Source of the DNA: Somniosus microcephalus
Lineage: Eukaryota
Direction of reading: 5' to 3'
NCBI GenBank assembly: GCA_052327205.1
Contig: CM126210.1
Span: 106,082,001-106,146,000, forward strand
DNA: 64,000 nucleotides
Below are positions 4,280-50,316 of this stretch, piece by piece. Made by a program: the position numbers and the translations under genes. The notes under the pieces were generated by a model. It saw only the letters and a list, made by a program, of their open reading frames with translations, made no database searches and was not told the DNA's origin. The number at the start of each line of letters is the position of its first letter. Position 1 is the first letter of the stretch.

Positions 4280-4326
4280 AGCACCTCTAGCATTGCAGCA
4301 CTCCCTCTACTGCATTTAAAGACAGC

Positions 4327-6861: not shown

Positions 6862-7067
6862 AAAACGTCTAAGCATAAATAGGACTGTATTGCCTGGGTT
6901 TTGAGGGTAGATTACTTACTAGGGCCGGTGGGAGGTGGTGTGTCTGCATGTGGCCCCACAGCTGCAGGTTGGACACCACTGCTTTAAGGGTATGTCCCTT
7001 GTAAGTAAAGCATTCCAGTTAAACAGTCAATCTCATTAATACACAAAACAGGATAAAAACCATCCGG

Positions 7068-7380: not shown

Positions 7381-7471
7381 GAACAAATTTTAAAAATTAA
7401 CTGCGTATGAAAACTGCCACCTGTTGACTGTACTGTATATGAGTTAATGTAGTCCAGGCAGCATGTTGCTT

Positions 7472-17782: not shown

Positions 17783-18688
17783 ATGGGGGTATGATTAAGA
17801 AGTTTGCAGATGATACTAAAATCGACTGTGTGGTTGATACTGAAGAAGGAAGCGGTAGACTGCAGGAAGATATCAATAAATTGGTCAGGTGGGCAGAACA
17901 GTGGCAAATAGAATTCAATCCGAAGAAGTGTGAGGTAATGCATTTGGGGAGGCTAACAAGGAAAGGGAATACACATTAAATGGTAGGACACTGAGTAGTG
18001 TAGAGGAACAATGGGACCTTGGAGTGCATGTCCACAGATCCCTGACGGTAGCAGGCCAAGTAGATAAGGTGGTTAAGAAGGCATACGGAATGCCGTGGCA
18101 TAGAATACAAGAGCAAGGGGGTTATGCTTCAACACTAGTTAGGCCTCAGCTAGAGTACTGCATGCAGTTCTGGTCACCACATTACATGAAAGATGTGATT
18201 GCACTAGAGAGGGTACAGAGGAGATTTACAAGGATGTTGCCGGGAGTAGAGAATCTTAGCTATGAGGAAAGACTGGATAGGCTGGGTCTGTTTTCCTTGG
18301 AACAGAGGAGGCTTATTGAGGTGTATAAAATTATGAGGGACATAGATAAAGTTGATAGAAAGGACCTATTTCCCTTAGCAGAGGGATCAAAAACCAGGGG
18401 GCACAGATTTAAAGTAATTGGGGAAGGTTTAGAGGGGATTTGAGGGGAAATTTCTTCACCCAGAGGGTTGTGGGGGTCTGGAACTCACTGTCTGAAAGGG
18501 TGGTAGAGGCAGGAACCCTAACCACATTTAAAAAGTACTTGGATGTGCACTTGGGATGCTCTAACCTGCAGGGCTACGGACCAAGAGCTGGGAAGTGGGA
18601 TTAGGCTGGATAGCTCTTTGTTGGCCGGCGTGGACACGATGGGCCGAAATGGCCTCTTTTCATGCTGTAACTTTCTATGATTCTATGA
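17783..18688 (+). mobile_element. 5'-truncated CR1 LINE (RT C-terminus and 3' UTR)
   Basis: [33 protein letters not shown]; TTCTATGA tandem tail. Confidence 0.95.
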
Positions 18689-18927
18689 TTATCACTCTGC
18701 TGATATAATTGAAAAGATCTTACTGCCACTGCCTCTTTCCTACTGCTGTAATAGCAGATTTTGTTAACCTCAATTGTATCTTATACCTGTCTCTACTTTC
18801 TTGACAGTTAATTTCTTTACATTCGGTAAAATATCTTTTTGAGGATATTTTGTGCACAAAACTTGCTAAATAGCCATTCGAGCTTCACTTTACCATGTAC
18901 TCTCTTTTGTTATCCAAGGAACATATA

Positions 18928-21272
18928 GGGGACAATTTTAACTCAGCCGTGAGGCGGGCTTTGAGGCATGTGGGGGGTTAAAATTGCAAAAACTGGGGGT
19001 CGGGACCCCCCCGCCTGGTTCCCGACCCTGAGCCATTTCAACCCAGGCGTGTCTGATGGTCCCGAATCAGTCCCACCTCCAACAGGCGGGACTGGTCTTT
19101 AAGATGCTTAATCAGCAATAATTGGCCTTTATAATGCCATTTTAACAGGCCCTTGCATTTTTAACCCTTTTCCCACGTAAAACACGCCTGGTGGGGATCA
19201 CGCCTGTGAAACCTGGCGTGAGCACTATTGGCTTGCTGACTATCAGCTGCAGGTCAACCATTAAAGAGGAGATTTGATCAGTCATCATTTGCAGGTGGCA
19301 GGACTTTGTTGTTTCAGGCCTGGGGCAACTTTTACCAGGCTTAACCACACCTGTGGAAGATTGGAGCCTCACACACATCTCCAGTGTGACCTCCTGGGAA
19401 ACCCCGCTCGCCACCTTCACTCAGCGCTTCCTCATTGGGGGCATGTACCAGAAGCATGGGAGCCATTTATTTCCCTGCTGCTCACCCACCTGAAGCTGCA
19501 CAGGCCAGAAGGGGCCAGCGCCTGGAAGTGGCTTGCGAGCAGCTTGCTGCACATCAGGGGGCCATGGGGACCCGTATCTGCACTGGCAGTCCTACTCAGA
19601 AGGACTTCCATGAAGGTCTGGTTTCTCTGTTCAATAGATGCCCATCACTCCTCAAGAGATGTCATTCTATTCTGAACACTCACCATGTTTTCCATACCCT
19701 GGGGACTAACCTCCTCCATGGAGGTTGCCATCTTTTCCATGGTGATGCGTTCATGCACCAATGATTCCACAAAGGCTCTGCTCATGTGATGGACCCAGAA
19801 GCAGAGGGTCGACATGCAGCTGAGCCGAGCTGGTAGAGTCCTGCGCCCTCTGACGAGGACTCTCCACTGCTGTCCCTGTCTCCACAATCTGCTGATGTTC
19901 ACTTGTGAGCTGTGATACACCAGGTGACAACACTACTCTGTCCCGAAGGTCCGCCCGAGGTGTGAGTGCCTGCGCTGGTGCTGGATGCACATATTTCTGC
20001 TGACGGTGCACCCTCAGAGGTTGCAGATTCCTCTGAGGAGTCTGGAATCTCAGGCTCTTCCCCCTGCACAGTGGGGACGGGGGCTCTCGATGGTCCTGTG
20101 GGGGAGTCAAGGAAAAAGTTAGAGATGTGATGCCAAGGTTACATGCACATTGCATTTTGCAGATGATCATAAGTCCATATGATGTAGCTTCAGAATCATT
20201 ATCAGCGACTCATGCAATGTCAGTGAGAGAGATGGAAAACTATTCTGTCACCAGCTTGCGGGGATGCACCTGTCTGTCCTTCCCCAACGTCCACATCTGT
20301 ATCATCCCCGACAATCTCCAGGACGGTATCCTCCCAGGGGGTGAGCTGGGCTAATGAGGGTGGCCCTCCTCCTGTCCTGGCTCGCTCTCTCCTGTTGTGA
20401 GCTCTCTTTTCCTGCAATGAGGGAGACAAGTGGAGGTTGAGTGAGAATGAGGGAGTGAGTGTAGAGATTGCATAGCATTGATACTTAGAAGGAGACAAAG
20501 ATGGAGTGAAGTTGCAAGACCAAGGGCCCTCCCTGTGTGTTGTCAGTTGTGTTCAAAGCATCAGAGTGAGAAGGAGTGTGAGGGCTGCATGGTTGAATAG
20601 TTATGTGAATGTGAGCATAGAGAGAGAGGGAATGGCTAAGGGTGCATGGATGTGAGTGTCAAGTGGGATGTGGCGGAAGAGATTGCTAAAGCTGAGTGCT
20701 GGTGAGGAAGGGCAATGGGGATCAGATTGAGGTGATGGAAACTTCATACTTACTTTTCCAGTGCGATGAAGGTCATGGAATCTTCTCCTGCACTGCATCC
20801 AGGTGCACCGTTTGAGCCCCAAGGAGTTGACTTCCCCAGCCACCTGTAGCCACACAGCCTTGGTCTGACTGGGAGGCCTCTTCCTCCCTGAAGAAGGGAA
20901 CAGGACCTCCCTGTGGGCCCTAGCCCCATCCAACAATGCCTGCAGTGATGCCTCATCAAAATTAGAAGATGATCTTGGCCTCCCGCTGGCCATTGTTCCT
21001 GTAGGTTCCTGTGCCATCAAATGCCAAAAGGTTGGCAGCCTGCAGAAGAAGCAAGGCTTGTTGCAGACCTTAAATGCAGCAGCAATGATGATGTCATATT
21101 ATGCAACATTCTGAATGGAAATACTCGTTTGCCAAGGGTTCCCACATGTTGGAAATCAATTGGCCAGTTGAGTTAAAATTGCATCAATCTCACACATCCA
21201 TTTAGATTTGTGTGGGAAACACGAAATTCGGGGAACCCGACAATTGCCCGCACCTGAGTTAAAATCAACCCC
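18928..21272 (+). mobile_element. Non-autonomous Harbinger derivative retaining the Myb gene
   Basis: TIR GGGGACAATTTTAACTCAG / CTGAGTTAAAATCAACCCC; ATA duplication; very similar to 48296-52553 but lacks the transposase core. Confidence 0.92.
19530..21017 (-). pseudogene. Harbinger Myb/SANT gene: exon 1 21017-20754, exon 2 20411-20252, exon 3 from 20095 (frameshifted, truncated)
   Basis: FDEASLQALLDG...WLQVAGEVN...WMQCRRRFHDL; GTAAGT and GTGACA donors; TTGCAG and CCACAG acceptors; exons 1-2 open. Confidence 0.8.
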
Positions 21273-22433
21273 ATATAGTTTCCCTGTCCATTTGTATAGA
21301 TTTGAAATAAATCAAATTTTCTTCTGTATTACAGTTGTTCCTTTCTAGCAGCATCCCCAATAAACCTTCTGCAAATACTCCCTCACTCTTGAAAGTTTAG
21401 CCTCCTTGAAATCTGACGCTAACATTAAATTATGTGCAGCAGTAAATAATTTAACCAACTGAAATCTGATTATTTTAATTAAGGAAAAATGTTTTGTAGT
21501 ATATTCATGGAATAAACATTGACCATTGATTATAAAAACATGTTTCAAGACATGCCAAATTTCTTTATATAGAGGTAACATGCTTTACCCAAAAACTAAT
21601 GAGATTATTTCCAAACTGGATCTATCTACTGCATTAGCATAACATATTGTGAGTGTTGGCTTAGCTTATAATTTTTACTTTGTAAGTGTATAGCTTATTG
21701 AACTTTACAATAAATTACAAGACAAAATCAGTTATTCAAACCATTCAGGAGTTGGAAAATATTTGAATGTGCCAAAATTTGAGCTATGTAACACAACACA
21801 AATACTGCACACCTATTTTACAGGTGCTTATCTTCATGCATGAAGCACTCATTCCTTGGTTTTGAAAAAATGCATTTAAGGCTCTGGAAGATAATTGATT
21901 ATTCCTAAACTTTTGCTAAAAACAGCAGTGGGGCAGTTACACCCAGTGCACTATTTTGGTATGTGTATCACATTTATATTACTGCATAGTTTCAATATGC
22001 AGTGTTCAGATAAACAATGTTGCATTGAACTACTGAGCAGGGATGTCGCATCTTTCTGGAAGGGTTGTGGGAGTTTTCTGAGATCCTCCCTACATATTTT
22101 GTAAACATTTTGCATTTCTAGCTATTCTCCTTTAGCATTGCTAACAGGGAATCTGGAGTCTGGAGTACGGTTATGATGCTTAGCTGATAACCTGGCCTGT
22201 GCTTCTAAAACCAGGAGCAGGAGTAGGCCATACGACCCCAATTGACGGAATGTCACTGTTTCAACCTGGGGGCGTGGATTGTTTTGTGGGCGGGGCCTTA
22301 TTTGGGAATTAGGAACATTCTGAAAATTATAGCTACTTAAAAATTGCAGAAGCTGATCAAAGGGTGGTTATAATTGCTTGTAAATTTCCAGCTCTAGATT
22401 AATGATTGACTTTCTTTCTCTGTTTTTTTAAAG

Positions 22434-26418: not shown

Positions 26419-28193
26419 CTAGCTGAAGTGCCCGGCGGTGCCGAGGCTTTTTCGAGGGCATGTTGTTGTTGGAAGAGAGAGAGAGAGCGACTGGGGGGAA
26501 GAGAGAGAGCGACTGGGGGGAAGAGAGAGAGCGACTGGGGGGAAAGAGAGAGAGCGACGGGGGGAAAGAGAGAGAGCGACTGGGGGGAAGAGAGAGAGCG
26601 ACTGGGGGGAAGAGAGAGAGCGACTGGGGGGAAGAGAAGGCGGGGAGGGCAGGGAGGGGGAGGGAGGGCAGAGAGGGGGAGGGAGGGCAGGGAGGGGGAG
26701 GGAGGGCAGGGGGTAGGAGGGGGGGAGGAGGAGGGGCGGAGGGGGGGAGGAGGGGGGGAGGGAGTGGGGGAGAGGAGGGGGGAGGGAGTGGGGGAGAGAA
26801 GGGGGGAGGGGGAGAGAAGGGGGGAGGGGGGAGAGAAGGGGAGGGGGGGAGAGAAGGGGGAGGGGGAGAGGGGGAGAGAAACAGAGGGAAGGAGAGAGAG
26901 AGGGCGAGTCGCCTGCGGCCGCAAATGGAGCCAAGCCCCGAGAACAGGCGTGAGCCGGCTTGAGGCTGAGACGGCCACGCCCGGTTGCCGGGGTAACCCT
27001 TCCCCCCCCCTTCCGAGCCCCCGTCCTCCCGAGCACCGGCCGCGCCGCCCCCCCGAGAGCCCCGCACTCCCGAGAGCCCCGCTCTCCGAGCCCCAGCCGC
27101 CCCGCCCCGCACTCCCGAGAGCCCCGCTCTCCGAGCCCCGCCCCGCCCCGCACTCCCGAGAGCCCCGCTCTCCGAGTCCCGGCCGCCCCGCCCCGCACTC
27201 CCGAGAGCCCCGCTCTCCGAGCCCCGGCCGAGCCGGCTTGAAGTCCGCCGATTGCGGCTGTGAGAGACGGCCGGCGGACCCGGTTGCCGGGGTAACCCTG
27301 CCCGCTCACCAAGCCCCGCCCGAGATCCGCACTCCCGAGAGCCCCGCCCCCCCCCCCCACCCGAGCCGAGCGGGGAACAGAGAAAGACGCCGCGTCTCAG
27401 CTGCTCCTGCTGCGCGCGCACCCTGACCCTCGTGACCCTCGTGGCTGACACCGATGCCCCGGGTAACGTGACACCGGGCGGGGGGGGGGGGCGGTGCGGT
27501 GTGTGAGGAGCTTAGCAGAAGCCGTGGGACAATTACCTAGCTCGGGCCTGGCTGGGCAAGAAAGGCCCAGGCTTTGAGGCCTAACAAAAACGGGGAAAGG
27601 TAGGAAAAAGAATCTTCAGGTTAGAGAAAATATTTACAAATGAATGAAGTTTTTTTTAAAACAATTTAATAAAAGCAATTTTATTTTGCTGGAAATGTAT
27701 ATTTGAAAAGAAAGATGCAGAAAGCAGGAAAAAGAATGGAAGCAAGATGGCGGCTGCTCACCTCGGTTCAGAACGATAAGGCCCGCCCACACACGCACCG
27801 ATTGGTCGACCGTCAGGTCACCAAAGCGTAGGATTGGTCAATCGTCCCGTCACTCGACCGTAGGAGGGCCAGGCCGCACGCGCCAGCAACCCGGCGTACG
27901 ATTGGTCGACCTCGAGGTCACTCTGTCGCTAATGAGCGGATAATGAGATGCTAATGAGCGGAATGTTGAAGGTTTTTCGGATACCGCGGGCGCGATTTTC
28001 GTCCGGCCGAAACGTAAATACGCTTATCATCGTTTTGGAACGGTGAGCTTTCTTTCGACGTAACGCACACGTAGGTACACTCTGTAACTTTTGAGCGCAT
28101 AGCCGGACAGACGCACACCCGAGGACAGACAGAAGGACAGACAGAAGGACAGACAGATAGACAGACAGAAAGAAGTATCCGTTTATATATATA
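26419..28193 (-). mobile_element. Non-autonomous Helitron, unit D (founder; its first 4 nt TCTA displaced to 32493-32496)
   Basis: Minus-strand 3' end GCCTCGGCACCGCCGGGC hairpin, 7 nt, CTAG|T; 5' (TA)nAAA followed by (CTGT)n; no TIR or TSD. Confidence 0.8.
26476..26637 (+). repeat. About 22-bp minisatellite GAGAGAGAGCGACTGGGGGGAA, followed by a G-rich polypurine tract to about 26900
   Basis: About 7 tandem units read directly; variants at 29428-29560 and 30890-31010. Confidence 0.9.
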
Positions 28194-29368
28194 CTAGCTG
28201 GGCAGCCCCGCGTTGCGAGGGCAATTTTGGGGCGCGAGGGCAATTTTGGGGCGTTTGGTCTCCCTGCCCCTGTGTGTCCCCCCTCTCCCTGTCATGTCCT
28301 CTCCCTGTCCTATCCCTCCCTCCCCTCTCTCCCTCCCCTCCCCTCCCCTCCCCTCTCTCCCTCCCTCCCCTCCCCTCCCCGTCTCCCTCCCTCCCCTCCC
28401 TGTCTCCCTCTCCCCCCCCCACCCCTCCCCTCCCCCACTCCCCTCTGTCCCTCTCTCCAGCCCCTCCCCCTGCCTAGCGCCTGAGGTCCGGTGCCGTTGC
28501 TGAGGTCCCCCGCGTATCACGCGGCTGATGGACGGCCGCTGCGGGCGGGCGGGCAGCGCATGCGCGGTGAGTGTGGGCGGTGCATGCGCGGTGAGTGCGG
28601 GCGGCGCATGCGCGGTCAGTGCGAGCGGCCCGCGGGAGCCGGCAAAGCCGTTAGCGAGCGGGAAACTTCGGGCGGCGCGCCCGCGCTCCGTCCGCGACAC
28701 CTGAGAGGGGGAAGTAGAGAGAGACAGAGAGGGAAGAGGAGAGAGGGAAGAGGAGAAGGAGAGAGAGGGAAGAGGAGAAGGAGAGAGAGAGAGGGAAGAA
28801 AGAGAGAGAGAGAGAGAAATTTTTTCAGCTTCAGGCCCCGAGTCCCCCCTGCGCGAGGGTGAGGAGGAGGGGGGGGGGGGTTGCTAAACACAATATAAAA
28901 CTCAAATAAATTGTTAATTAATTGCCTAACACATAATTGAAATATTTACCTTAGTTCCCTAACACACAGAAAGTGTGGGGGAAAAAATCGTGGAAAATCA
29001 AGATGGCGGCCACTCACCTCGGTTCAGAAGGATAAGGCCCGCCCACACACGCACCGATTGGTCGACCGGTCAGGTCACCGAAGCGTAGGATTGGTCAATC
29101 GTCGAGTCACTCGACACTCAACTGTAGGAAGACCTCGACGTCACACGGTCGCTAATGAGATGCTAATGAGCGGAACGCTGAACGTTTTTGGGATACCGCG
29201 GGCGGGATTTTTGTCCGGCCGAAACGTAAATACGCCTATGACCGGTCCGGAATCGCAAGCTTTCTTTTGAGGCGACGCGCGCGTCGGTACGCTCTGTAAC
29301 TTCCAAACGTATAGAGACCAGGCGGACAGACAGACAGACAGACAGAAGAGCCGCTTTATATATATAGA
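28194..29368 (-). mobile_element. Non-autonomous Helitron, unit C (shared 5' module, different body and 3' end)
   Basis: 5' A|TCTATATATATAAA; 3' GCCCTCGCAACGCGGGGC hairpin, 7 nt, CTAG|T. Confidence 0.8.
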
Positions 29369-29370
29369 TA

Positions 29371-30829
29371 CTAGCTGAAGTGCCCGGCGGTGCCGAGGCT
29401 TTTTCGAGGGCATGTTGTTGTTGGAAGAGAGAGAGAGAGCGCGACTGTGTGGGGGGGGGGGGGGAGAGAGAGAGAGAGCGCACGACTGGGGGGGAAGAGA
29501 GAGAGTGACTGGGGGGAAGAGAGAGAGAGCGCGGGTGGGGGGAAGAGAGGGCGGGGGGGAAGAGAGGGCGCGGGTTAGGGCGGGGGGGAGGGCGGGGCGG
29601 GGGGGAAGGGAGGGGAGCGGGGGGAGGGGGAAGGGAGGGGGGAGGGGGAAGGGAGGGGGGAGTGGGGCGGAGAGGGAGCGGCGGGGAGGGCGGCGGGGGG
29701 GAGCGGCGGGGAGGGCGGCGGGGGAGGGGTGGGGCGGGGGGAAGGGAGGGCAGGGGAGGGGGGAAGGGAGGACGGGGGAGGGGGGAGGGGCGGGAGGGGG
29801 GGCGGGGGAAGGGAGGGCGGGGGAGGGGGGCAGGGGAAGGAAGGGGAAGGGGGGGAGGGAGGAAGGGAGGGCTTGAGGCTGAGAGACGGCCACGCCCGGT
29901 TGCCGGGGTAACCCTGCTGCGCCGCCCTGCCCCGCACTCTCGAGAGCCCCGCTCTCGAAGCCCCAGCCGCCCCGCTCTCCGAGCCCGCCCCGCACTCCCG
30001 AGAGCCCCGCTCTCCAAGCCCCAGCCGCCCCGCACTCCCGTTGCCGGGGTAACCCTTCCCGCTCACCAAGGCCGAGATCCGCACTCTCGAGAGCCCCGCC
30101 CCCCCCCGCCCGAGCTGAGCGCGGAACAGAGTCTCACCTGCTCCTGCTGCGCGCGCACCCTGACCCTTGTGGCTGACGTCGTTGCCCCGGGTAACGTGAC
30201 ACCGGGGGGGGGGGGGCGGGGTGTGAGGAGCTTAGCAGCAGCCCAATTACCTAGCTAGGCCCTGGCTGGGCAAGAAAGGCCCAGGCTTTCAGGCCTAAGA
30301 AAAAAACGGGGAAAGGTAGGAAAAAGAATCTTCAGGTTAGATAAAATATTTACAAATGAGTGATTTATTTTAAAACAATTTAATAAATTCAATTTTATTT
30401 TGCTGGAAATGTATATTTGAAAAGAAAGACGCAGAAAGCAGGAAAAAGAATGGAAGCAAGATGGCGGCTACTCACCTCGGTTCAGAATGTTAAGGCCCGC
30501 CCACACACGCACCGATTGGCCCGGCGGCACACGCCAGCAACCCGGCATACGATTGGTCGAGCTCGAGGTCACTCTGTCGCTAATGAGCGGATAATGAGAT
30601 GCTAATGAGCGGAACGTTAAGGTTTTTCGGATACCGCGGGCGCGATTTTAGCCCGGCCGAAACGTAAATACGCTTAAAACCGTTTTGGAAAGGTAAGCTT
30701 TCTTTCGACGTAACGCACGCGTAGGTACGCCCTGTAACTTTCGAGCGCATAGCCGCCCAGACGCACACGTGCAGACAGACAGAAGGACAGGCAGAAGGAC
30801 AGACAGAAGGACCAATTTATATATATAGA
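29371..30829 (-). mobile_element. Non-autonomous Helitron, unit B
   Basis: 5' TCTATATATATAAA; 3' hairpin and CTAG|T identical to unit D. Confidence 0.8.
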
Positions 30830-32492
30830 CTAGCTGGAGTGCCCAGCGGTGCCGAGGCTTTTTCGAGGGCATGTTGTTGTTGGAAGAGAAAGAGAGAGAG
30901 AGCGACTGGGGGTGGGGGGGGGGGAGAGAGAGAGAGAGAGCGCGACTGGGGGGGAAGAGCGAGAGCGACTGGGGGGTAGAGAGAGAGCGACGGGGGGAAG
31001 AGAGAGAGAGATGGGTGGAAGGGAGGGCGGGGGGGGAAGGGAGAAGGGAGGGCGGGGGGAAAAGGGAGGGCGGGGCGGGAAGGGAGGGAGGGGGGAAGGG
31101 AGGGCGGGGGGGAAGGGAGGGAGGGGGGAAGGGAGGGGGAAGGGAGGGAGGGGGGGAAGGGAGGGCGGGGGGGAAGGGGGGTAAGGGAGGGAAGGGGAAG
31201 GGAGGGAAGGGAGGGCGGGGAAGGGAGGGTGGGGGGGCGGGGGGAAGGAAGGGGTGGTGGAAGGGGGTGGCGGGGGGGAAGGGGGTGCGGGGGGGAAGGG
31301 GGAGGGGAGAGGGGGGGAGGGGAAGAGGCGGGGAGGGCTTGAGGCTGAGAGACGGCCACAGCCACGACCGGTTGCCGGGGTAACCCTGCCGCGCCGCCCC
31401 GCCCCGCCCCGCACTCCTGAGAGCCCCGCTCTCGAAGCCCCAGCCGCCCCGCCCCGCACTCCCGAGAGCCCCGCTCTCCGAGCCCGCGGAGCTCCGTGCT
31501 GCCCCACGCACTGACATGGCCCCGCCCTCCCGAGCTGTCTTGAAGATCGCCCCGCCCCGCACTCCCGAGAGCCCCGCTCTCGAAGCCCCAGCCGCTCCGC
31601 CCCACACTCCCGAGAGCCCCTCTCTCCGAGCCCGCGGAGCTCCGTGCCGCCCCACGCACTGACATGGCCCCGCCCTCCCGAGCTGTCTTGAAGATTGCCG
31701 ATTGCGGCTGAGACGGCCGGCGGGCCCGGTTGCCGGGGTAACCCTAAGCCCCGCCCGAGATCAGCACTCCCGATAGCCCCGCCCCCCCGCCCGAGCCGAG
31801 CGGGGAATAGAGAGAGAGACGCCGCGTCTCAGCTGCTCCTGCTGCGGGCGCACCCTTTAGTAAGGTCGCGGCGCTGGGCTGAGGCCCGCCCCTGCAGCCT
31901 TCGAGTGGGGCCAGGAGGTGCCTAGCTCGGGCGTGGGTGCGGAGGAGATGCCGAGGCTTCGAGGCCTACCTGGAAAAACGGGGAAAGATAGGAAAATTAA
32001 TGAGATTAGATAAGTTAATAACTTTCTAAATCATTTTTTTTAAAAACAATATGTGTTTTAAAAGCAACGTTTTTTTTAAAGACGCAGAAAGCGGGAAAAA
32101 GAAAGGAAAAGTTTGGAATCAAGATGGCGGCGACTCACCTCGGTTCAGAACGATAAGGCCCGCCCACACACGCACCGATTGGCCCGGCGGCACACGCCAG
32201 CAACCCGGCGTACGATTGGTTGAGCTCGAGGTCACTCTGTCGCTAATGAGCGGATAATGAGAGGCTAATGAGCGGAACGTTAAGGTTTTTCAGATACCGC
32301 GGGCGCGATTTTAGCCTGGCCGAAACGTAAATGCGCTTAAAACCGTTTTGGAAAGGTAAGCTTTCTTTCGACGTAACGCACGCGTAGGTACGCCCTGTAA
32401 CTTTCGAGCGCATAGCCGCCCAGACGCACACCTGCAGACAGACAGACAGATAGACAGAAGGACAGACAGAAGGACCGATTTATATATATAGA
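30830..32492 (-). mobile_element. Non-autonomous Helitron, unit A
   Basis: 5' A|TCTATATATATAAA; 3' GCCTCGGCACCGCTGGGC hairpin and CTAG directly abutting the TC of unit B; internal tandem duplication of about 150 bp at about 31400-31696. Confidence 0.8.
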
Positions 32493-32714
32493 TAGATTGG
32501 TTTGTAGGGTTATCTGAAGCTCAGTGGGAAAAATCTCATCTCCCAGTGACAGGTCTTCCCTGCCACCTCCAAGTTTGCATTGCTGAGCTAGACTAGCTGG
32601 TCAGTTTCAGCAGTGGCAAGAAGTGCAGCAGACCTGCTTGGTTAAGGTATCGGTTTATTGAGTCTGCAACAGATGGTTGACTTGATTCTAACCTTCCATC
32701 GCCAAGAAGGACAA

Positions 32715-33900: not shown

Positions 33901-36900
33901 TGGATGTAACTGCTGACACCCTTGAATTTTATCTGCAGTCCATTTAGTCCTTTCCAAAGCAATTTATGTATAAAAGTCTTGTTTTTATGTGCACGTTTCT
34001 AGGTGATCTAATGTTATAGAATCACTTTGACCAGTCAGATTGCAGAACCAGAGACCACTGTCCCTTCAACCAATTGCCTTATCAATATGCTCTGCCCACC
34101 GCCCACCAGCCGATCAGCTTTTTCTGTGGCTAGATTGGCCAAAATGAGTGTTGAACACCATTAAGACTTCCCGTCTGTACTTGTACACATCCATTTTACA
34201 AGTGGAAATTCACTAGTAAAGGTTTATTATTGGTTTTAAGAAACTTTGCTTGTTAATCACCACATAAATATTTGAACAACGTGAAACAGTATATGAGAGC
34301 ACCAATGGAGTAGTGGGTGAATGCATGCTCTGTTTAGTACTGAGACATACAGAGCAGGAAGGCTGACCCTTGGTCAATGCTGAGCTCATTTAAATCAGCT
34401 GTGAGAGAAGCAAGGACAATCCAATTGGCCCCAGTGCTCATAGGAAAAAATCAGCCAAGGCACTTGCTCTCGGTTGGCACAAAGTGAGTCCTCCTGCAAA
34501 ATGCCTGTGTGTAGTTTATCGGGTGAGGACAGATTGGGCTAAGCTGTGATTCCTGCCACTGCCCCCCACAACCCCAGATAGACTACCTTGCTGACACATA
34601 TACAGAAGAGAGAAAACTGGATAAAAAGTATAAAGCTATATATGGAAGATGCACTTATACACCAGATTTTATGGTCATCAAACCTTTGTCATGATGCTTA
34701 ACTAATGAGAACATGAATGAATATAAATAGATGGACTACTTTAATAAAAACCTGTGCAAAAAGCTTCTTAGCCTGTTGTCAACAAATTTGCCTCCTTGAG
34801 TGGGTGAATAACATTGTCTCTTCATAGCTTTAATGTGCTTTTCTTTTCCAAAGTCCTTACATTAGTTCAGTTAAAGAATGATATGGTTCTATTTGTGTCA
34901 CTGATGTAGTTACAGCCAACTGCTGCTTGACTCAGATGATGAAAGTGCCATTTGTCTGAGTGTTCACTTCCTTTTGGACAAATTCATATGATAGCTTCAA
35001 CAAAAGTACTTGACACAGTCAACAGATGCCTTTTCAGAATGCTTAAAGAAACTTAATCTTCTTAACAGTGTGGCTTCACCTGCAATTCATGGACAAAATT
35101 ACCTTCACAAATAAAATGATGAGTTATACAGTAGAAGTGCACATTGCACCAAAAATACGGTAGCTGAAAATTGCAGTACAGTACCTCTGTACAGGGTGCT
35201 AGAGGGAGGGGAGAGAAAGGAACAAATTATCATTTCCAAGTTGCTGTAGCATTCTTTTGGGGTCTGGAAAGCAGCCTGTGATATTCCCTCCTCAGCAACA
35301 GAAGTGAGGACTTAGAACATTGTGGAATTTTAAAATAACTGATTTGGTATGTAAAAAAAATTAAGAAAAGAAAACTGTCTTCCACTGTGCAACCTGAGTA
35401 AAATGTAAAAAATTCCAGCAATGACAACTCTCAGAATCATTGCTGGCTAGGAGTAAGCCATTCAGTCCCTCGAGCCTGTTCTGCCATTCAATTAGATTAC
35501 ATTTCATAAAATTTCATAGAATTTATAGCACAGAAACAAACCATTCAGCCAAACTGGTCACAACGCCCATTGTTATTAATGTGCAAATTGGCCAGCAAGT
35601 TCAGGGAATGAAGAGATATGCCGTGAGTTGCGAATCTTCAGAATTTGCTGGTCGATTTACGCCGCTCCGCCATTTGCCTCGCACAAAGGGCATCTCACCC
35701 TTAGCCTCCTCGTTATTTTTAAGAACCTGCTGGATTTGCACATTAAACTAGCCACAGAATGTTGGGGCTCATAATTAATAATGTAAGTACCCTTTTAACA
35801 ACATGATAATTGTTAATGCAATGCTAATCAATCGCTCCGGCTCAGAATGAGAACAATGTAAAATGTTGAGTCTCAATCTTGAATGTAGGAAATTGTTAGA
35901 GATTTAAAAAATGTCAAATTTTTAATTTTTTTCTTCTTTTTCCTTTCTGTCTCTTTTTTTCCCTCTCTCTTAATCCAATCTTTCTTTCACCTCTCATGGC
36001 CAGAATTTTCCCCTAAAAAACAGGGTGGGTTTGGAGCATGGGGGCAGTTAAATTGTTAAAAATCGGATTCCTGACCTGATCCCGCCTCCGACCTGTCCAC
36101 TTACAGTTTTAACGGGGATGGGTAGCCAACCCGCCGCCAGAGGACGGTATCTTAATTTAAATATGGTAATGAGGCTAGAAGCCTTTTTTTTCACCTCCAT
36201 TTTGTATTAACTGCCTGTGGACGGGTTTCACACAATATGCTTTATACCTACCTCCTGGATCCAGGGTGTATGTACCTTTAAGGGAATAACTGGTTTTAGA
36301 CTGCAGTACCGGCAGTGACCACCCCTGTATAAAAGGCCCTAGCAGGCTTCTGTATTTCAGTCTGACGTTGCCTCCTGTTCAGTAAAGTACCTGTTAAACT
36401 GTTCTCCCGAAGTCTATGTATTATTGAGGCGCGGACTTTACAGTGGCGATGAGTAAGTTCGAACTCACCTGCAGTGTGGCATCATCTCACGGGGATCTCG
36501 CCCTGAGAGGAGGGTTCTGGAAGGTCGTAGTCTGAACAACGGGCGTCGACCGAGGGCAACCGCCCAAAGAATTCATCGGTGTTCGGAGAATTGCGGGAGA
36601 GACTGTGGAGAGCTGTGCTTGGCTCCCCAGTTAAGGTGTTCCAGCAAATCGTGCTGGTAGCAGGTAGCACACTGACCCTTCCGGACTGTGGCGGGCTCAA
36701 GCTCGATCGAGCGGCTGTACAAAATGGGCCACGCAGCGTCGCCGGGAAAAGAAAACGAGAGAGAGAGGGTGGAGCGCACAGGGCGCGGTCGGTGCTCAAG
36801 AACAGGGCAGCGGAGAGAAAATAAACGGGGGGAAGGAAAGCGAGACGTGCCGAAGCTGCGGGTCGCTGCCATTACCCTGTAGAACGCTAGGAGCAGCGTG

Positions 36901-36907
36901 GCAGCAA

Positions 36908-37025
36908 GGGGAAGAAGCAAAAGCGCGGGAGGCGCCATTTTATCCCGTTGGGGAAGAAGCAAAAGCGCGGGACGTGCCATTTTATTCCATTGGGGAAGAA
37001 GCAAAAGCGCGGGAGGCGCCATTTT
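36908..37025 (+). repeat. 42-bp tandem repeat, about 3 units, in the Gypsy leader
   Basis: GGGGAAGAAGCAAAAGCGCGGGA(G/C)G(C/T)GCCATTTTA at 36908, 36950 and 36992. Confidence 0.9.
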
Positions 37026-37037
37026 AAATCACCCAAG

Positions 37038-37832
37038 ATGCCGAAAAGTGGCAGTATCACTGCTTTCGACAATGAGGTAGAAGACTGGACCACGTATGTG
37101 GAAAGAATTGAAGTATACTGCAAGGCGAATGAAGTGGCCGATGGAAAGAGGGCGTCGGTATTATTAAATCTGATGGGCGCGAGTACATACGGTCTATTGC
37201 GGAATTTAATTACCCCAGCTAAACCAATGGAGAAAAGTTTTGAGGAGATTGTTCATATCTTACAGGAACACCTAAGCCCTACACCACTGCTGATAGCAGA
37301 AAGATTCAAGTTCCATAAAAGAAACCAGCACAAAGATGAGCGCAATGCTGACTATCTTACGGAACTACGCAACTTATCGAAACACTGCCAGTTCGGAGCA
37401 GGACTGGCAGACACCTTACGGGATAAGTTTGTCTGCGGGCTCCAGAGTGAAGGAACCCAGAAACGACTACTTTCAAAAAAGGACCTGACACTAGAACAGG
37501 CTTTCAGCGTGGCAGTATCCTATGAAGCAGCAGCACGGGGAGCTGCGGAAATACAACAGAAACCACAAGAATACAGCGCTAACGAAATGGCGTATGGAGC
37601 CGAAAAGTGCTATCGCTGCGGCAGAACAACCCATGAGCAGAAGGACTGCTGGTTTAAAGACAAAATATGCAGGCAATGCGGGAAAATGGGACATATAGCA
37701 AGAGTCTGCAGGTCGGGAAAGAAGACCAACACGACAAGAACTACTAAGGAACAGTACAGGAAAGTAAAGAAACTGACAGATAGTAGTTCAGAAGATCAGG
37801 AGAGTGATAAGGACCTGAGAGCAGGCGACTAA
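37038..37832 (+). CDS. gag: Gag with two CCHC zinc knuckles
   Basis: MPKSGSITAFD...WTTYVER...LRDKFVCGL; CYRCGRTTHEQKDC and CRQCGKMGHIARVC. Confidence 0.88.
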   Translation: MPKSGSITAFDNEVEDWTTYVERIEVYCKANEVADGKRASVLLNLMGASTYGLLRNLITPAKPMEKSFEEIVHILQEHLSPTPLLIAERFKFHKRNQHKDERNADYLTELRNLSKHCQFGAGLADTLRDKFVCGLQSEGTQKRLLSKKDLTLEQAFSVAVSYEAAARGAAEIQQKPQEYSANEMAYGAEKCYRCGRTTHEQKDCWFKDKICRQCGKMGHIARVCRSGKKTNTTRTTKEQYRKVKKLTDSSSEDQESDKDLRAGD

Positions 37833-37849
37833 GTTTAAAGTTACACAAC

Positions 37850-40800
37850 GTGATCGCAAAGGAAGATCACCGAACCATTTGGGTCACCTTCATGATAGCA
37901 GGGTCCCCAGTAAAGATGGAATTGGACACAGGATCAGCCCTAACTGTCATGAATCGACGAGACTATGAGCGGCTATTCTCACACATACCCTTAAAGGACA
38001 CGTCCATTGTATTGAAGACATACACGGGGCAAAAGGTCTACCCCAGAGGAAAAATAAGGGTGCCAGTTAAATATAACGGCAAGGAAACACAGAAACTATA
38101 TATGTATATACTACGAGATGGTGGACCACCATTATTGGGACGTGAATGGATCCGAAAAATACAATTGGATTGGCATTCCATTCTGGCGCTAACTGTGACT
38201 GACAAAAAGGATGATGACGTCGCACCTGGACGTCTGTCACAAATTCTATCTGACGCGGAAGAGGTGTTCCAACAAGGACTTGGGACTCTAAAAGGAGTAA
38301 AGGCAACCATAAAGATTGAGGATAACGCAACCCCAAAATTTTTCAAGGCCAGACCGGTGCCATATGCGATCCGCCCAGCCGTTGAAGCTGAACTGGAGAG
38401 TCTGGAGCGTTCGGGTGTGCTGTCCAAGGTGGACTGGAGCGAGTGGGCCACACCCATCGTTCCTGTAATGAAGAAAGCATTGAGCAGCACGCCTGGGGAG
38501 CCAAGGAAGGTTCGCATCTGTGGGGACTTCAAGGTGACTGTGAACCCAGTTCTGCACACAGTACAGTATACACTTCCGCGGATAGAAAATATTTTCACCT
38601 CACTATCTGGAGGGAAACGTTTTACAAAGATTGATCTGGCTCAAGCGTATCTACAAATGGAGGTGGAAGAAGCATCTAGGAAGTACCTCACGATAAACAC
38701 TCACAAAGGCCTTTACCAGTACAATCGACTGGTATTCGGGGTAGCATCGGCCCCGGCTATTTGGCAGAGGGCAATGGAACAAGTCCTGCAAGGGATCCCA
38801 GGGACCCAGTGTTATTTGGACGACATCCTGGTTACGGGCGAAAATGACAATGAACACCTTGCCAACCTGGAGCAGGTGCTCACGAGATTGCAGGAATATG
38901 GGCTACGAGCCAACCGCCCCAAATGCGAGTTCTTCAGGAGACAAATCTCGTATTGTGGCCACATGATTGATGAGGAAGGGTTGCATAAGTCGCCGGACAA
39001 GATTGAGGCTGTAGTCAAGGCTCCAGCACCGGAAAATGTGTCGCAACTGAGGTCGTTCCTCGGGTTGGTGAACTACTACCATAAGTAGTTGTCGAATTTA
39101 TCTACAATTCTGCACCCACTGAACGCCCTGCTTCAAACTGGAGTAACATGGAAATGGAGTCATGAGTGTAAGCGTGCCTTTCAGGAATGTAAATGCCTAA
39201 TCACTTCAAAAGAAGTATTGGCCCACTACAACCCAACATTACCGATTCGGTTGGCATGTGATGCGTCACCTTACGGCATTGGAGCGGTGCTGTCACACAA
39301 ATTCTGTGACGGTTCAGAGAGGCCAATAGCCTTTGCATCGCACTCGCTAACCTCAGCCGAGCGTAACTACGCCCAGATTGACAGGGAGGCCCTCAGCCTG
39401 GTGTGGGGGGTGAAGAAGTTCAATCACTATCTGCACGGGCAGAAATTCACCCTACTGACTGATCATCAGCCCTGGTCTCAATTTTTAACCCAAAGAAGGG
39501 CGTTCCGGTGATGACGGCGCAACGGCTGCAAAGATGGTCACTTTTTCTAGGGGCACATCAGTACGACATAGAGTACAAAGGTACGAAACAGCATGGAAAC
39601 GCTGATGGGCTGTCGCGCCTACCGTTGCCTACGGTGGAAGAAGCACCTGCAGTGGACCCTGTGGAGATATTCCATGCGACCATAGTCGAATGTTTGCCTG
39701 TTACAAACGCAAGTATTGAGAAGGAAACCCGAAATGACCCGACACTCTCTCGGGTCTATGATTTGATGGTGAAGGGATGGTCAGCATATGGCGACTCACT
39801 GTTGCCAGCATTCTCGCCAAGGAGAGAACAGCTGTCAGTGTGCCGGGGAACCTTGATGTGTGGATCCCGAGTGGTAATTCCACCCAAGTTGAGAGATAGA
39901 GTACTCAATGAGCTTCACGAGGGTCATCTGGGAGGGGTAAAAATGAAGAGCCCAGCCATGGCGTTTGTGTGGTGGCCGGGAATCGATAAAGAAATCGAGG
40001 ATATGACCAAGAGATGCACAGGATGCCAGAAGGTCCAAAACGCTCCACCACAGGCCCCGCTACATCCATGGGAGTGGCCCTCATCTCCATGGCAACGGGG
40101 CAGGGTACACATTGATTTTGCTGGTCCATTTATGGACTCAATGTTTCTAATCGCTGTGGACGCCCATTCGAAATGGCCAGAGGTCATTAAAATGTCCTCC
40201 ACCACCACGGAGAAAACTATTGCAGTCCTAAGGACCATCTTCGCCAGGAATGGGTTGCCAGAACAGAATTGCTCCGACAATGGGCCATAGTTTGTGTCTG
40301 AGGATTTCCGGAGGTTCCTGAAGAATAATGGTGTGAAACATTACACATCTGCCCCATATCATCCAGCCACAAATGGATTGGCTGAGAGGTTTGTTCAGAC
40401 CTTTAAAAAGACCATAAAGGCAATGTATAATGACGACATACCACTACAACACAAGGTGGATAATTTCTTGTTTGCTTACCGGAATGCGACACATGCAGTA
40501 ACCAACCAAACTCCAGCCGTACTGTTTTTCAACCGAAGACTAAGATGTCGCTTGGATTTGCTCAAACCAAACATAAGACGAGATGTTGAGGATAAGCAGT
40601 TCCAGCACATAAATGAGAAGCCAACCAGGAGCTTCAAGATAGGGCAACCAGTCTTGGCCCGCGACTACCGAACAGAAAAATGGTAGCCTGGAACGATATG
40701 CACACAGCAGGGACCACTAATGTACACAGTGGACGTTGGAGAGAGAATCGTGAGACGCCATGCTGACCAGATTCTAGAGTCACAGGAACAAGCCAAACCT

Positions 40801-40992
40801 ATACCACAAGCAGGTGCACCTGGTAATGAGCCCGAAGTACAGATTGCGTCTACCTCAGAAGCAGGGGTATTGGAAGCTGACGAACCAACCAATGACAATG
40901 AGCCAGAATCGACTCCACCGCAAGAACAGGATACTCGAGAAAGGCGCTATCCAGTCAGGATCAGGAAGCCTCCTCAAAGACTGAACTTATAA
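37850..40992 (+). pseudogene. pol: Pol (protease, RT, RNase H, integrase), disrupted
   Basis: LDTGS, YLDD, CDASPYGIGAVL, H..H..C..C, HIDFAGP, SDNGP, NGLAER; stops at 39086, 40288 and 40684; frameshift near 39475. Confidence 0.95.
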
Positions 40993-43017
40993 ATGACTAT
41001 TTCAGTTGATGTATATAGTACCAAGAAAATTGTAATTGTAATTAGTTATTATTTAGTTGTTAAATGAATGTTATGTACTGTTTATCTAAAAGGGGAGGAA
41101 TTGTTGTGTATGTACCTTTAAGGGAATAACTGGTTTTAGACTGCAGTACCGGCAGTGACCACCCCTGTATAAAAGGCCCTAGCAGGCTTCTGTATTTCAG
41201 TCTGACGTTGCCTCCTGTTCAGTAAAGTACCTGTTAAACTGTTCTCCCGAAGTCCGTGTATTATTGAGGCGCGGACTTTACACCTACCTAACCCACTCCC
41301 CGCTATCAGAAACCTGTCATGAGGCCTCCGATCCCCACCATGAGGCATCCCCCCACCGCCACCCCACTGATGATGCTGAGGCCAGCCACAATCCTCCGGT
41401 TGCTGGCCCTGATCCTCTGGCCCCCGACCCCCATTCCTGATCCCCAACCCAGCCCATACTGATCCCCCCAGTCCCCAGCCAACACCCCCAATCCTCCAAC
41501 CCCCTCCCGATCCCCAGCTGATCCTCCAACTCCCTCCCGATCCCCGACCCCCTGACGATCCACCGGCCGACCCCCCCCCGCCCCCCCCCAGCCGACCATG
41601 CCGATACCCCCCCTGACCCCCAACCGTACTGACACCCGCCCAACTGATCTGTGACTATGCCGACACCGCAATTCCTCCCCCAGACCATCCCCTTGCATCT
41701 GAGGCCTAGGATTCCCACCCGCAGCCAGCCAGCCTCTCAATCTGGCTGGCTGCGAGCGGGAATCCAAGGCCTCATATTCAAATCAGGCCCTGCCGTTAAA
41801 GTCAGCAGGCCCTGTGGGAAACCCAGCTTACCGGGTTTCCCGCCCACCTCAGAGGCCACCGGCCCCAACCCGCCTCCTTTGAGAAAATTCCGACCATTAT
41901 TTCTCATTCTGTACCTGATTTTACTCTACTTCATCCTTCTTCTCTGCCATTCCTGTTTTTTACTCAATACTTAAATCTCATTGGTTAAGGAGATACATTG
42001 TTGGTCCTGTGCCTCACTAAGGTCCCAGATGCCCCGTTGCACTCGTCGCACCATTATCAGCTTGCACTTCCAGCAAGTTACAGCGCAAAACTTTTTTGAG
42101 CTGAAGAGTGCAGGAAAAATCCAACTAATGGTACATGCCGCATGATGCCCAGCTCCAGCAAGATTTGGCCTCATGTCTTTGTTTTCACTGGAAAATCTTT
42201 GCTACTGGTTTTTCTAAACGATTGTACTATAGTATTAGTTTAACTGTTTTGATTGCCATCTGGGCTGAAGCTTAATCATTAAGTTCCAAACCAATAGTGC
42301 TTAACACACAAAACATACCTTCAGTTGTTGGGTCCTAGCATCAAACGAGTAGCTGTCAGCATGGTGTGAGAACAACAATGCTACCTTCATAAAAAACTTG
42401 TTCTTCTAGAATAAAAACTGATTGGTACAGGGGAGACAGTCTACACTTAAACCAATTAGGGACAAAGAAACTTGTGAGGAACATTGAGACAGCAATCGAA
42501 AATCATTCCTGCTTCTGTGGCCCCCAAGGAATCCTACCGAAGATTTAAAAATATTACTTACCTTGGGCATCCTGCCAGGTTTCTCTGGCAGGTTTGATAC
42601 CAGATGGGCCTCCCTCTACCTGAGTCATCGCATATCTAACATCACAGCGCCAATTACATCATCGGGCTGCTACTTTTAAATTTAAATTGAGCCCCCACCC
42701 AGCTGCAGCAGGAGTCTCAGCCAACTTCAAAGTCAGCGAAGATGAAATATCACCGGGTAGGAATGGTGCGGCATTGGGCTAGTAAGTGGACTCGGCTGAA
42801 TTTAACACTTTCCATGCACAGTTCCCGCTGGGCAATCGGCGGGGGGGGGGTGGTGGTTCAGAACCAACTCCATTGTTTATTTTTAGTAAAACACTATTAG
42901 TAGTTGTGAGATAAAAACTACATTTTGTATTAATTTAACTTCAAGAAACATAAAAGCAACTAGTGTGTTCCATTGTAGAGTCCAAAGTAAGTCCATAAAC
43001 ACTACGGCAAACTTACT

Positions 43018-47525: not shown

Positions 47526-48818
47526 ATAATTTGTGCAATGGAGTGATGAGATGTGTCTGTTCCTGCAATTACAATGCAAAACTCCCAGTCCCAGCCATGC
47601 TGTCACAGGGAGATATTGAGTGAAGATTAGCTATTGCCTCACAGAGGAGCTCTCAGTAGAGCTATCAACTTCCCCAGAAATGCTGCACCCATTATTTTTA
47701 AGTGAGTTAATAATTCCTCTTCTCCCATTAATCATCAAGTGTGGGGAAAATGTCCTTCCTGTTCATTGCTTCTCGCGCTTGGTACCTTGTTCACACCTCC
47801 TCCTTCCATTGCTCTGATAGGAAACTTCCAATTTCCACATTTTTACTCTTATTGTAGTGGTACTAATGTCAGCAGTTTGGTAAGACTAATGTCCTATATA
47901 AATCAAACTTTCTTGTTTTTCTTGTCAGCATGTCATGCCTGATCTAATGCAAGGCCTACTGCAGTTGACCCATTATATCTGAACAGCTGAAATTGTACCC
48001 CGGGGTGGACAAACCTAGTAAGATAGCAGTTGCAAACAGCACCTTCCACTCAGTCTACATAATCCATTTGAAAAACAATCTGTATGTCATTACTGTGGTT
48101 TACAGACACGAGGAAAATATTTATTTAAAGCATTTCTTCCCTCAGGGGATACACGTACAAATTTTCTAGACGATTGTAGGATTAGAGAATGGATGCTGAC
48201 TTCAAAACTCATCAACCATGAAACAATAACAGAGGATGTTTCCAAAGGAAGTAGATTTTAATGGCAAATTATCTTATCACAGCTTTTGATGCATTGGGGT
48301 CGATTTTAACTGAGCCGTGGAGGCGGGCTTTGAGGCGTGCGGGGGGGGGTTAAAATCGCTAAAACTGGCGGGCAGGACCCCCCCCCGCCTGGTTCCCGAC
48401 CCCGAGCCATTTTAACCCAGGCCTGTTTGATGGTCCCAAATCCAACAGGCGGGACTGATCTTTAAGGCCCTTAATCAGCAATAATTGGCCTTTATAATGC
48501 CATTTTAACAGGCCCTTGCATTTTTAACCCTTTTCCCACGTAAAACACGCCTGGTGGGGATCACGCCTGTGAAACCTGGCGTGAGCACTATTGGCTTGCT
48601 GACTATCAGCTGCAGGTCAACCATTAAAGAGGAGATTTGATCAGTCATCATTTGCAGGTGGCAGGACTTTGTTGTTTCAGGCCTGGGGCAACTTTTACCA
48701 GGCTTAACCACACCTGTGGAAGGTTGGAGCCTCACACACATCTCCAGTGTGAACTCCTGGGAAACCCCTCTCGCCACCCTCACTCAGCGCTTCCTCAGCG
48801 GAGGCATATGTCAGAAGC

Positions 48819-50060
48819 ATGGGAGCCATTTTTCTCCTTCCCTTCTTGGCATTAGAGGAGCTCAAGCACTAGGCCTGGCAGCAGCAGAACCAGGAACAAC
48901 AGCAGCACCAGCAGCAGCAGCAGGAGCGACAGGCTGCTGCTCACCCACCTGAGGCAGCACAGGCCAGAAGGGGCCAGCGCATGAAAACCTGTCGGCGCAG
49001 GAGATACCCCCCAAACAGGGTCTACAGATACAGGGTCAGCTACCTCAACATGACTGAGCAGCAGTGCCAAAGGCGGCTCCGACTTTCGTGACAGGTAGTG
49101 ACTGACATCTGCGCAATGATACAGCAAGACCTGCTGCCCAGAGGACCAGGTGGACACTCCTTACCAGTGGCCATCAAAGTCACCACTGCACTCAACTTTT
49201 TTGCCTCAGGCTCATTCCAGGGATCATCAGCAGACATCAGCGGCATCTCCCAGTCGGCCGCACACACTTGCATCACACAGGTAACCGATGCCCTCTTTGC
49301 CCTCGCGCACAATTACATCCATTTCACCAGGGATCGTGCAAATGTGATGGCGCGAGCGGTTGGATTAGCTCATCTGGCAGACTTTCCAAGGGTGCAGGGC
49401 GTCATTGACTGCACACATGTGGCCCTTAGGGCACCCCATCGCAATCCAGGTATTTTTGTCAACCGCAAGGGCTTCCACTCCCTTAACGTTCAGCTGGTGT
49501 GTGACCACAAGAAGGAGATTTTGCATGTTTGTGTCATGTACCCTGGCAGTTGCCATGACTCCTTCATACTGCACCAGTCTAGTGTGCCTCCGCTATTCAG
49601 GCCGCCAGACCAACTTCACGGATGGCTACTTGGAGACAAGGGCTTTCTCCTGAGGACTTGGCTAATGACGCCGTTGAGGAGGCCAGCCAACGAAGCTGAG
49701 GAGTGCTACAACTCCAGCCACATTTCCACCAGATCCATAATCGAGCAAACCATCGGCTTGCTGAAGATGCGCTTCAGATGCCTGGATAGATCAGGTGGAG
49801 CCCTACAGTACTCAGCAGCCAGGGTCTCCAGAATCATCATGGTTTGCTGTGCACTCCAGAACATGGCACACTGTCGTGGCTTGCAGATTCCTGAGGACCA
49901 AGTGGCTCCTCACATACCCTCCTCAGATGATGATGATGATGAGGATGAGGAGGGCGAAAATGAGCATCCCGCAGAGGGCCATCAACCAGCGGCAGCATTA
50001 CGCGAGAACATTGCTGCCCGGGATGCAAGGAACGCACTCATCCTGACCAGATTTGCTTAG
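48819..50060 (+). pseudogene. Harbinger (HARBI1-like) DDE transposase with two in-frame stops
   Basis: In-frame ATG at 48819; TAG at 48870; TGA at 49089; [53 protein letters not shown]. Confidence 0.93.
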
Positions 50061-50316
50061 CCTAGTAAATCAAACTCTTTTGTCTCGCAGCTTCTTACCT
50101 GAGCATCGACAATGGCCAAACCCTGCGGATTCCTAGCTACTTGACCAGCATCCTGACAACTGCAAGTAACCCTAAGCCCTCAATGTGAAAGCCCCATTTG
50201 CAAAATGACACACGCCAGAACTGCAACAGTTGCCATCAGAATTTTTATGCACAAGAACCAACTGATGGCATTTTTACAATATACACAACATTTCACCCAA
50301 GTGACTACCCTTGTGA

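Follow-up and report, generated by a model that had tools for sequence, protein, structure and literature searches.

Architecture of the block

A block of four units, which are probably non-autonomous Helitron1 elements, occupies positions 32496 to 26419 on the minus strand of a 64,000-nucleotide stretch of the Somniosus microcephalus genome (contig CM126210.1, positions 106,082,001 to 106,146,000; this whole stretch is referred to here as the window). Read on that strand, the four units share one orientation and follow the order host A, TCTA, unit A, unit B, TA, unit C, body of unit D and host T, and all five junctions match the layout proposed in a first-pass annotation of the window. The host A at 32497 precedes TCTA (32493..32496), whose junction bases suggest the severed 5′ tip of unit D. 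There follow unit A (30830..32492, 1663 bp; TC(TA)5 to CTAG), unit B (29371..30829, 1459 bp; of the family of A and D), a TA spacer (29369..29370) that would come either from the 5′ tract of D, as its bases 5–6, or from duplication of TA, unit C (28194..29368, 1175 bp; of a related but distinct family) and the D body (26419..28193, 1775 bp), the presumed founder, which starts with (TA)5, ends with a hairpin plus CTAG and adjoins the host T at 26418. Units A, B and C all begin with TC(TA)5AA, and all four units terminate in CAGCTAG. The block structure is confirmed as real.

Excision of A, B and C in silico joins TCTA, TA and the D body into TC(TA)7 between host A and host T, and so returns the TC(TA)n start that had been anticipated for D. 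What the first-pass annotation missed is that all three intact siblings carry (TA)5, which leaves the rejoined start of D, with seven TA units against five, a 4-bp surplus. That the host happened to supply TCTA is unlikely, since it occurs at 0.3% of flank positions and at ~1% when A is given as the base before the insertion. Neither direct repeats of 2–14 bp flanking the block nor inverted repeats at its ends were seen (509 inverted pairs were found in all, the 25 longest being internal low-complexity tracts), which speaks against the earlier concern that the ends might belong to an element with terminal inverted repeats (TIRs) or a target-site duplication (TSD). Among self-BLAST matches of at least 40 bp, none revealed another copy in the 57.9 kb of the window outside the block. 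An original insertion site within a known repeat or gene found no backing: the block flanks have no paralogue in the window, and a Pfam comparison of 12 flank frames gave one sub-threshold match.

Class, internal plan and divergence of the units

Canonical Helitron1 elements are described as having a TC start with a TATATAAA left end, a CTAG end, an A^T insertion context (between host A and T) and no TIRs (PMC5876387, PMC12001565), and Helitrons in general as making no TSD (PMC5876387). Because the TC start, the left end, CTAG, the A^T context and the absence of TIRs all match, we assign the units to Helitron1 as probable non-autonomous members, which upholds what had first been noted about their ends and their non-autonomy. 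The 5′ TC and TA-rich left end are present in A, B and C as they stand, and in D after its three pieces are rejoined; the A-T context holds for the outer block and, as reconstructed under three of six insertion orders, for the three inner events. No Rep/Hel domain was found in 900 bp of each flank or in the 12 of the window's 33 long open reading frames (ORFs) that the domain scan covered.

Near its 3′ terminus B carries a hairpin (29382..29399, minus strand, as for all features of the units) with a 7-bp stem, one bulge and a 3-nt loop, which ends 11 nt before the terminus. The hairpin of D is identical (26430..26447), that of C has another sequence at the same position (28205..28222, from the fold of the last 30 nt), and that of A is weakened at this position by a CpG-type change (30841..30858). 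Folds of the last 30 nt gave −6.6 to −6.7 kcal/mol in B, C and D, and in A the hairpin is lost. Folds of 45-nt junction pieces were no better than those of shuffled sequences (z −0.4 to −1.4), and that of C picked a structure other than the terminal hairpin; the hairpin evidence is therefore one of position, not of energy.

Other assignments were tried and either rejected or disfavoured. The Helitron2 group (Helentron, HINE, DINE-1) is marked by TT insertion and T-rich termini, in place of which the units show an A^T context and TC/CTAG ends; their 5′ microsatellite is the only resemblance to DINE-1. That group is also marked by subterminal inverted repeats of 12–15 bp, on which the inverted pairs viewed here, the 25 longest of the 509, do not bear. 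TA-targeting TIR transposons (Tc1/mariner-type miniature inverted-repeat transposable elements and MuTAnT) were set aside in view of the missing TIRs and flanking TSD, and a rolling-circle concatemer or satellite array in view of monomers that are not near-identical and junctions that are not uniform. In A, B and D a Kozak-like ATG, placed 43 nt short of the 3′ end, starts a frame for a basic peptide; it was discarded as a hidden ORF, its sequence paralleling a duplicated hairpin-arm motif in C. Relatives of proteins from junction-spanning frames were found for none of 6 and none of 108 candidates, a result uninformative on copy number. Structured RNA gave no Rfam match in the window, and a prokaryotic origin was rejected with no match of a 29-nt core in the genome contig collection.

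The units follow a common plan of TC(TA)5, a (CTGT)n-type microsatellite, ~230–300 bp of conserved left end and then a 63-bp core. The microsatellite lies just inside the 5′ end (A 32435..32475; B 30774–30812; D 28122–28173) and is shorter in C. The promoter-like core (A 32120..32182; B 30457–30519; C 28999–29061; D 27743–27805) is 95–97% identical in all six unit pairs and includes a CCAAT box and a GC box together with splice-donor-like and YY1-like motifs. Each unit has a single YY1-like 11-mer; the flanks have none, and for no unit did it turn up in more than 1 of 200 shuffled sequences. Enrichment over shuffles extends to the GC-box and X-box-like patterns and mostly does not to CCAAT, donor and CRE (cAMP response element) patterns counted singly, in counts for which the four units are not independent samples and internal repeats inflate the GC-box figure. 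An intron-like segment of predicted splicing, running from GT to a pyrimidine tract and AG, was called by pattern in A (31970..32138, 169 bp), B (30295–30475, 181 bp) and C (28701–29017, 317 bp); for D (27581–27761) the acceptor, which the pattern did not call, was read by eye. Judging from sequence, this layout would be that of a promoter-carrying element with a putative promoter. No other stretch of equal size in the window is as CpG-dense as the block (471 CpG, GC 0.63, observed/expected ratio 0.81; maxima of 309 and 0.53 in 47 equal-sized windows elsewhere), and the low CpG content of much of the flank suggests a methylated, vertebrate-like genome.

Further motifs accompany this plan. A repeated internal motif like the RFX X-box consensus lies on the minus strand of A (31737, 31379), B (30048, 29907) and D (27291, 26992); it doubles as a short hairpin resembling the 3′ hairpin of C and may be a relic terminator. 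Its hairpin-like pattern is absent from the flanks, where a looser X-box pattern gives 6 two-strand counts. Unique to C is a second promoter-like segment (28565–28665, minus strand) with three tandem NRF1-like motifs and one E2F-like motif, against 2 and 3 matches in the flanks. Two copies per unit of a 9-mer that we take to be POU/octamer-like stand upstream of the core in all four units (32250–32272, 30587–30609, 29159–29170, 27936–27958), with 2 matches in 57.9 kb of flank, and point to possible germline or early-embryo regulation.

The units are far from uniform. Over their first 234 aligned bp, A and B share 97.4% identity, four of the six differences being CpG transitions, and upstream of the diverged patch of A it is D that is the odd unit, at 16/234 columns. 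This patch, of about 265 bp (31854..32121), shows 57–71% identity to B and D, between 91–97% on its 5′ side and 79–93% on its 3′ side; across it B and D remain 93–96% identical. In a three-way alignment A is odd at 80/250 patch columns compared to 10/401 others (chi-square 112.5), a value reached by none of 100 permutations (maximum 16.0). Marked by the patch, A may be a chimera or a separate lineage. Since point decay after insertion cannot make such a patch, A and B would not be a plain rolling-circle dimer, barring later conversion from another copy, and the doubt cast on such a dimer in the first-pass annotation, on the grounds that A and B differ internally, gains weight.

C shares its 5′ ~370 bp with the other units, at 79–82% identity in the first segment and 95–97% in the core; the 79–82% applies just upstream of the core (Fisher p 0.0006–0.01, with segment limits set after viewing the alignment). 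Beyond the core, C has an interior and a 3′ end of its own, and the end motif is all that it shares with A, B and D. The earlier description of three non-identical copies is thus right as to non-identity and understates C, which represents a related but distinct family. The diverged patch of A, together with the other interior and 3′ end of C, excludes amplification from one template. At ~27805–27870, D has an A/B-type CCAAT module and a C-type module in tandem (the module of C itself being at 29061–29125), and 4 alignment columns group C and D against A and B; from its sequence D appears to be either an ancestor of the two families or a recombinant of both. In C a long low-complexity tract (28300–28470) has the opposite strand bias, G-rich where those of A, B and D are C-rich, and would accordingly be either inverted or separately derived. 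CpG decay (A 4, B 2 and D 4 of 40 sites) is too slight to order the insertions.

Insertion history and its alternatives

Three of the six possible insertion orders (C-B-A, B-C-A and B-A-C) obey A^T at every step, which supports the earlier proposal of serial insertion at A^T steps in the 5′ end of a resident copy. We hold serial insertion as such to be very probable; that separate insertions into a self-renewing hotspot arose through passive target preferences stands, in our estimate, at about an even chance, the mechanism being the less certain half of this explanation. D would have entered a host A^T site. Its TC(TA)n tract would then have received C behind base 6 and B behind base 4, in either order and each at an A^T step, and A would have entered at the A^T bond where B begins. 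A RepHel transposase encoded at another locus presumably acted in trans to mobilise all units. The draw of the hotspot would lie in the A^T step, an AT-rich 3′ flank, the neighbouring promoter-like CpG island and probably accessible DNA. Each newcomer would place its own T behind the retained A, along with a further TA tract and island, rebuilding the target at the 5′ edge of the array with no TSD; the target would be self-renewing because every newcomer starts TC(TA)5AA and carries a promoter-like island. The junction bases, the unit differences and the A^T-legal orders are seen directly; the history, the transposase partner, open chromatin and promoter activity are inferred. Nesting without duplication explains all junction bases and requires no junction indel, given (TA)7 in D, and is the simplest of three junction models, TA duplication being open and a head-to-tail arrangement with indels weak.

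Chance alone would hardly produce such a locus. The window holds 8170 oriented A^T sites outside the block, and three insertions among 6 chosen sites have a post-hoc probability of 4e-10. Across nine combinations of assumed settings (genome of 1–5 Gb, 1e3–1e5 copies), uniform A^T targeting yields at most 0.0013 expected triple loci per genome in 9/9 settings and fails on this ground; at least one expected locus is reached in 0/9 settings at 7-fold local enrichment, 3/9 at 70-fold and 5/9 at 700-fold. Even if D is taken to have received two insertions, the probability of finding both within its first 16 nt on the same strand is 0.004 (6 of 46 AT steps). Because the expectations fail and this probability is low, a preference on the scale of the left end would be required, CpG-island preference alone being too weak. 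The 15 nt after the insertion points of A, B and C contain 14, 14 and 12 A/T, respectively; among the 8170 A^T sites of the window, 1.1% have at least 14 A/T in the next 15 nt and 13.5% at least 12. Helraiser is reported to target the AT dinucleotide with an AT-rich 3′ flank, CpG islands (6.9-fold) and open chromatin (14.2-fold) (PMC4778049). Target regeneration has been described as a cause of tandem elements for elements that make TSDs (PMC5932611), and we would extend it, by analogy, to TSD-free Helitrons.

Several points weigh against serial insertion into a passively preferred hotspot. One such locus per genome needs ~70-fold local enrichment together with ~1e5 copies, a high copy need at odds with the lack of any other copy in the 57.9-kb flank. 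(TA)7 is required of D while all three siblings have five, and the exactly five TA units left after C amount to a ~1-in-6 coincidence. All four units took one orientation though a TA tract offers A^T on both strands (1/8 by chance for three insertions). Furthermore, the CpG decay suggests some methylation and not a permanently open island, and gives no sign of A being younger than B.

The first-pass annotation took the pattern to suggest homing of the element to its own 5′ end. In such homing, a donor-loaded RepHel would bind a resident left end, melt it in the way that transposition normally starts, and strand-transfer at the nick site or within a few bases of it. Three insertions inside 6 bp in the same orientation are consistent with this, as are the confinement of both D hits to the first 16 nt of one strand and the position of A, which occupies the very bond where Helraiser cuts a left end; among other HUH enzymes, TrwC and AAV Rep show site-specific integration into the sequences they recognise (PMC6049929), and several 5′ termini, up to five according to PMC13342296, are common in fungal Helitrons (PMC5148889, PMC13342296). 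Against homing, the case comes from a single locus, two of its three events lie 4 and 6 bp away from the donor nick site, and Helraiser showed no local hopping and no clustering near donor sites in 701 events, in an assay of cis distance and not of base-level targeting (PMC4778049). Moreover, own-end and TA-tract targeting are inseparable at this locus because the window contains only one other (TA)4+ tract. Helraiser's general preferences, with each copy recreating the site, yield the same record, so homing is not established and we regard it as a tentative minority possibility. Similarly doubtful is its broader form, by analogy, of a lineage that homes to left ends across related families, whose RepHel would nick in a sliding register along the TA tract and grow polar, mixed-family promoter/CpG-island arrays, possibly with occasional 2-bp TA duplication. 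If true, left-end homing would be a safe-harbour strategy at already tolerated sites, analogous to origin-directed TrwC/AAV Rep integration.

The remaining explanations depart further from independent nested insertion. Head-to-tail arrays have been ascribed to rolling-circle replication (PMC12001565, PMC5876387), and a concatemer or tandem duplication followed by junction indels and gene conversion would suit the A/B join, which is a precise circle junction, the near-identity of A and B over their first 234 aligned bp with its mostly CpG-type differences, and the exactly (TA)5 kept in all four units; about half of Helraiser circles reportedly had aberrant junctions in one assay. It would, however, call for indels of +4, 0, +2 and −2 at the four 5′ junctions, three of which must have changed separately and by coincidence rebuilt TC(TA)n, and it sits poorly with the sharp fall of A–B identity in the patch and with C belonging to another family, so that we consider it improbable. 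No better placed, in our judgement, is a serial-insertion history in which two events (C, then B or the A–B pair) each duplicated TA, through register slip in the repeat or a non-canonical reaction: it would derive both the 4-bp surplus and D's remaining (TA)5 from an ordinary TC(TA)5 D, and variable TA repeats are said to occur as footprints of maize Helitron excision. Such a duplication is seen neither at the A/B join nor at the host site of D, there are no TIRs to indicate a TA-duplicating cut-and-paste element, and Helitrons are described as forming no TSD (PMC5876387). A stack assembled elsewhere that reached this site in a single composite move, with its internal 3′ ends bypassed, a history compatible with the other readings, is unlikely as well, if slightly less so: end read-through accounts for ~11.7% of Helraiser events (PMC4778049), composite Helitrons have been described in bats (PMC4224331) and proposed in fungi (PMC5148889), the hairpin of A is weakened and CpG decay is similar across units, but three bypasses in succession would be needed and the hairpins of B and C are intact. 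Least credible is an assembly artefact joining dispersed copies; A's patch does start directly after the near-identical core, where an assembler might switch copies, but the units join at their termini without shared overlap and differ base by base, the window contains no N, and long low-complexity tracts are resolved and distinct in each unit.

Elsewhere in the window, a long terminal repeat (LTR) retroelement at 36266–41282 has 177-bp terminal repeats of 98.9% identity and zinc-knuckle, protease, reverse transcriptase (RT) and integrase domains spread over several frames, and is apparently recent. Related pieces at 7795–9436, 18925–21274, 48293–52555 and 54644–56335, presumably Harbinger-like, include a DDE_Tnp_4 domain (49092–50060) and a Myb/SANT domain (20601–21098), and a 73-bp inverted pair lies at 7469–7541 and 9457–9529. 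GC-rich elements of ~700 bp occur within 3490–5105 and at 59802–60499, comprising a tandem pair (3587–5023), an inverted one (59802–60499) and a weaker one (6281–6862). They lie between copies of a 44-bp repeat, which may resemble a SINE/LINE tail of cartilaginous fishes, and may be a second element that also forms a tandem at a short repeated target. The segments 17934–18443 and 60591–61514 appear, from their translations, to be LINE-like RT C-terminal remnants, with no Pfam match at E 0.001.

Known Helitron arrays and what the locus adds

Insertion at or near the 5′ end of a resident Helitron is already known in kind from maize, bats and fungi (PMC2267711, PMC4778049, PMC5148889). At maize r1 (BAC AF466202), CTAG is directly followed by TC between dissimilar Helitrons, as at the A/B join, and Du et al. 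(2008) favour consecutive insertion there, one option being at the host-A/5′-T step (PMC2267711). The maize case as presented in that account is a pair with one flush join and, unlike the shark block, without TA-tract insertion or a split 5′ end. Abutting insertions have been reported for Myotis Helibat (Grabundzija et al. 2016), where they figure as one way of gaining a new 3′ end, among 39/395 copies (PMC4778049). In Fusarium, FoHeli shows self-insertion near the 5′ end, two copies lying just 2 bp apart (Chellapan et al. 2016, PMC5148889). The same report reads a three-copy tandem in Metarhizium acridum as either a double insertion into the 5′ end or a rolling-circle product. FoHeli is, however, Helitron2-like with other termini, and its repeated 5′ pieces measure 31–85 bp, whereas the block contains whole elements staggered by 2 bp (PMC5148889, PMC13342296).

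Other systems resemble single aspects of the locus. HelibatN3 and other bat Helitrons are non-autonomous and carry a promoter, first exon and splice donor, as the units of the block appear to; the HelibatN3 promoter has been traced to the host gene NUBPL and shown to be active, whereas the promoter of the units is putative and may be captured or their own (PMC4778049, PMC4224331). In Drosophila, transposable element dimers are explained by double insertion (McGurk and Barbash 2018), with the target kept or recreated and tandems built by repeated insertion; that model relies on TSDs, while the target in the block would be remade by the element's own 5′ end (PMC5932611). Heli1Xen1, a vertebrate Helitron1, has the TC start with TATATAAA and a hairpin plus CTAG, as in the block, and forms four tandem arrays in X. 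laevis; its hairpin sequence differs from that of the block, and the two are likened by description only (PMC12001565). TrwC and AAV Rep are HUH enzymes that integrate where they bind and nick, and offer RepHel a functional analogy only (PMC6049929).

Whether tandem Helitrons arise as concatemers or by repeated insertion has been debated since 2007–2008 (PMC2267711), and target choice by RepHel is described in statistical terms only (PMC4778049). Our literature search, which left most subscription papers outside its scope, found no description of insertions staggered within the TA tract of a resident Helitron, nor of left-end homing. To the cases already known, the locus adds a four-deep, two-family stack with staggered, base-resolved junctions, and it makes the homing question countable genome-wide. 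Staggered joins can decide the origin of an array where flush CTAG–TC joins cannot, because a split TA tract records position, order and orientation. If staggered joins prove rare, the block would be a clear example of known behaviour. If they are common, their counts relative to matched TA tracts would test left-end homing directly, and they would represent a route to 6-kb CpG islands and to the seeds of mixed-family satellites, as well as a warning for annotation that the true 5′ end of a Helitron may lie kilobases from its body.

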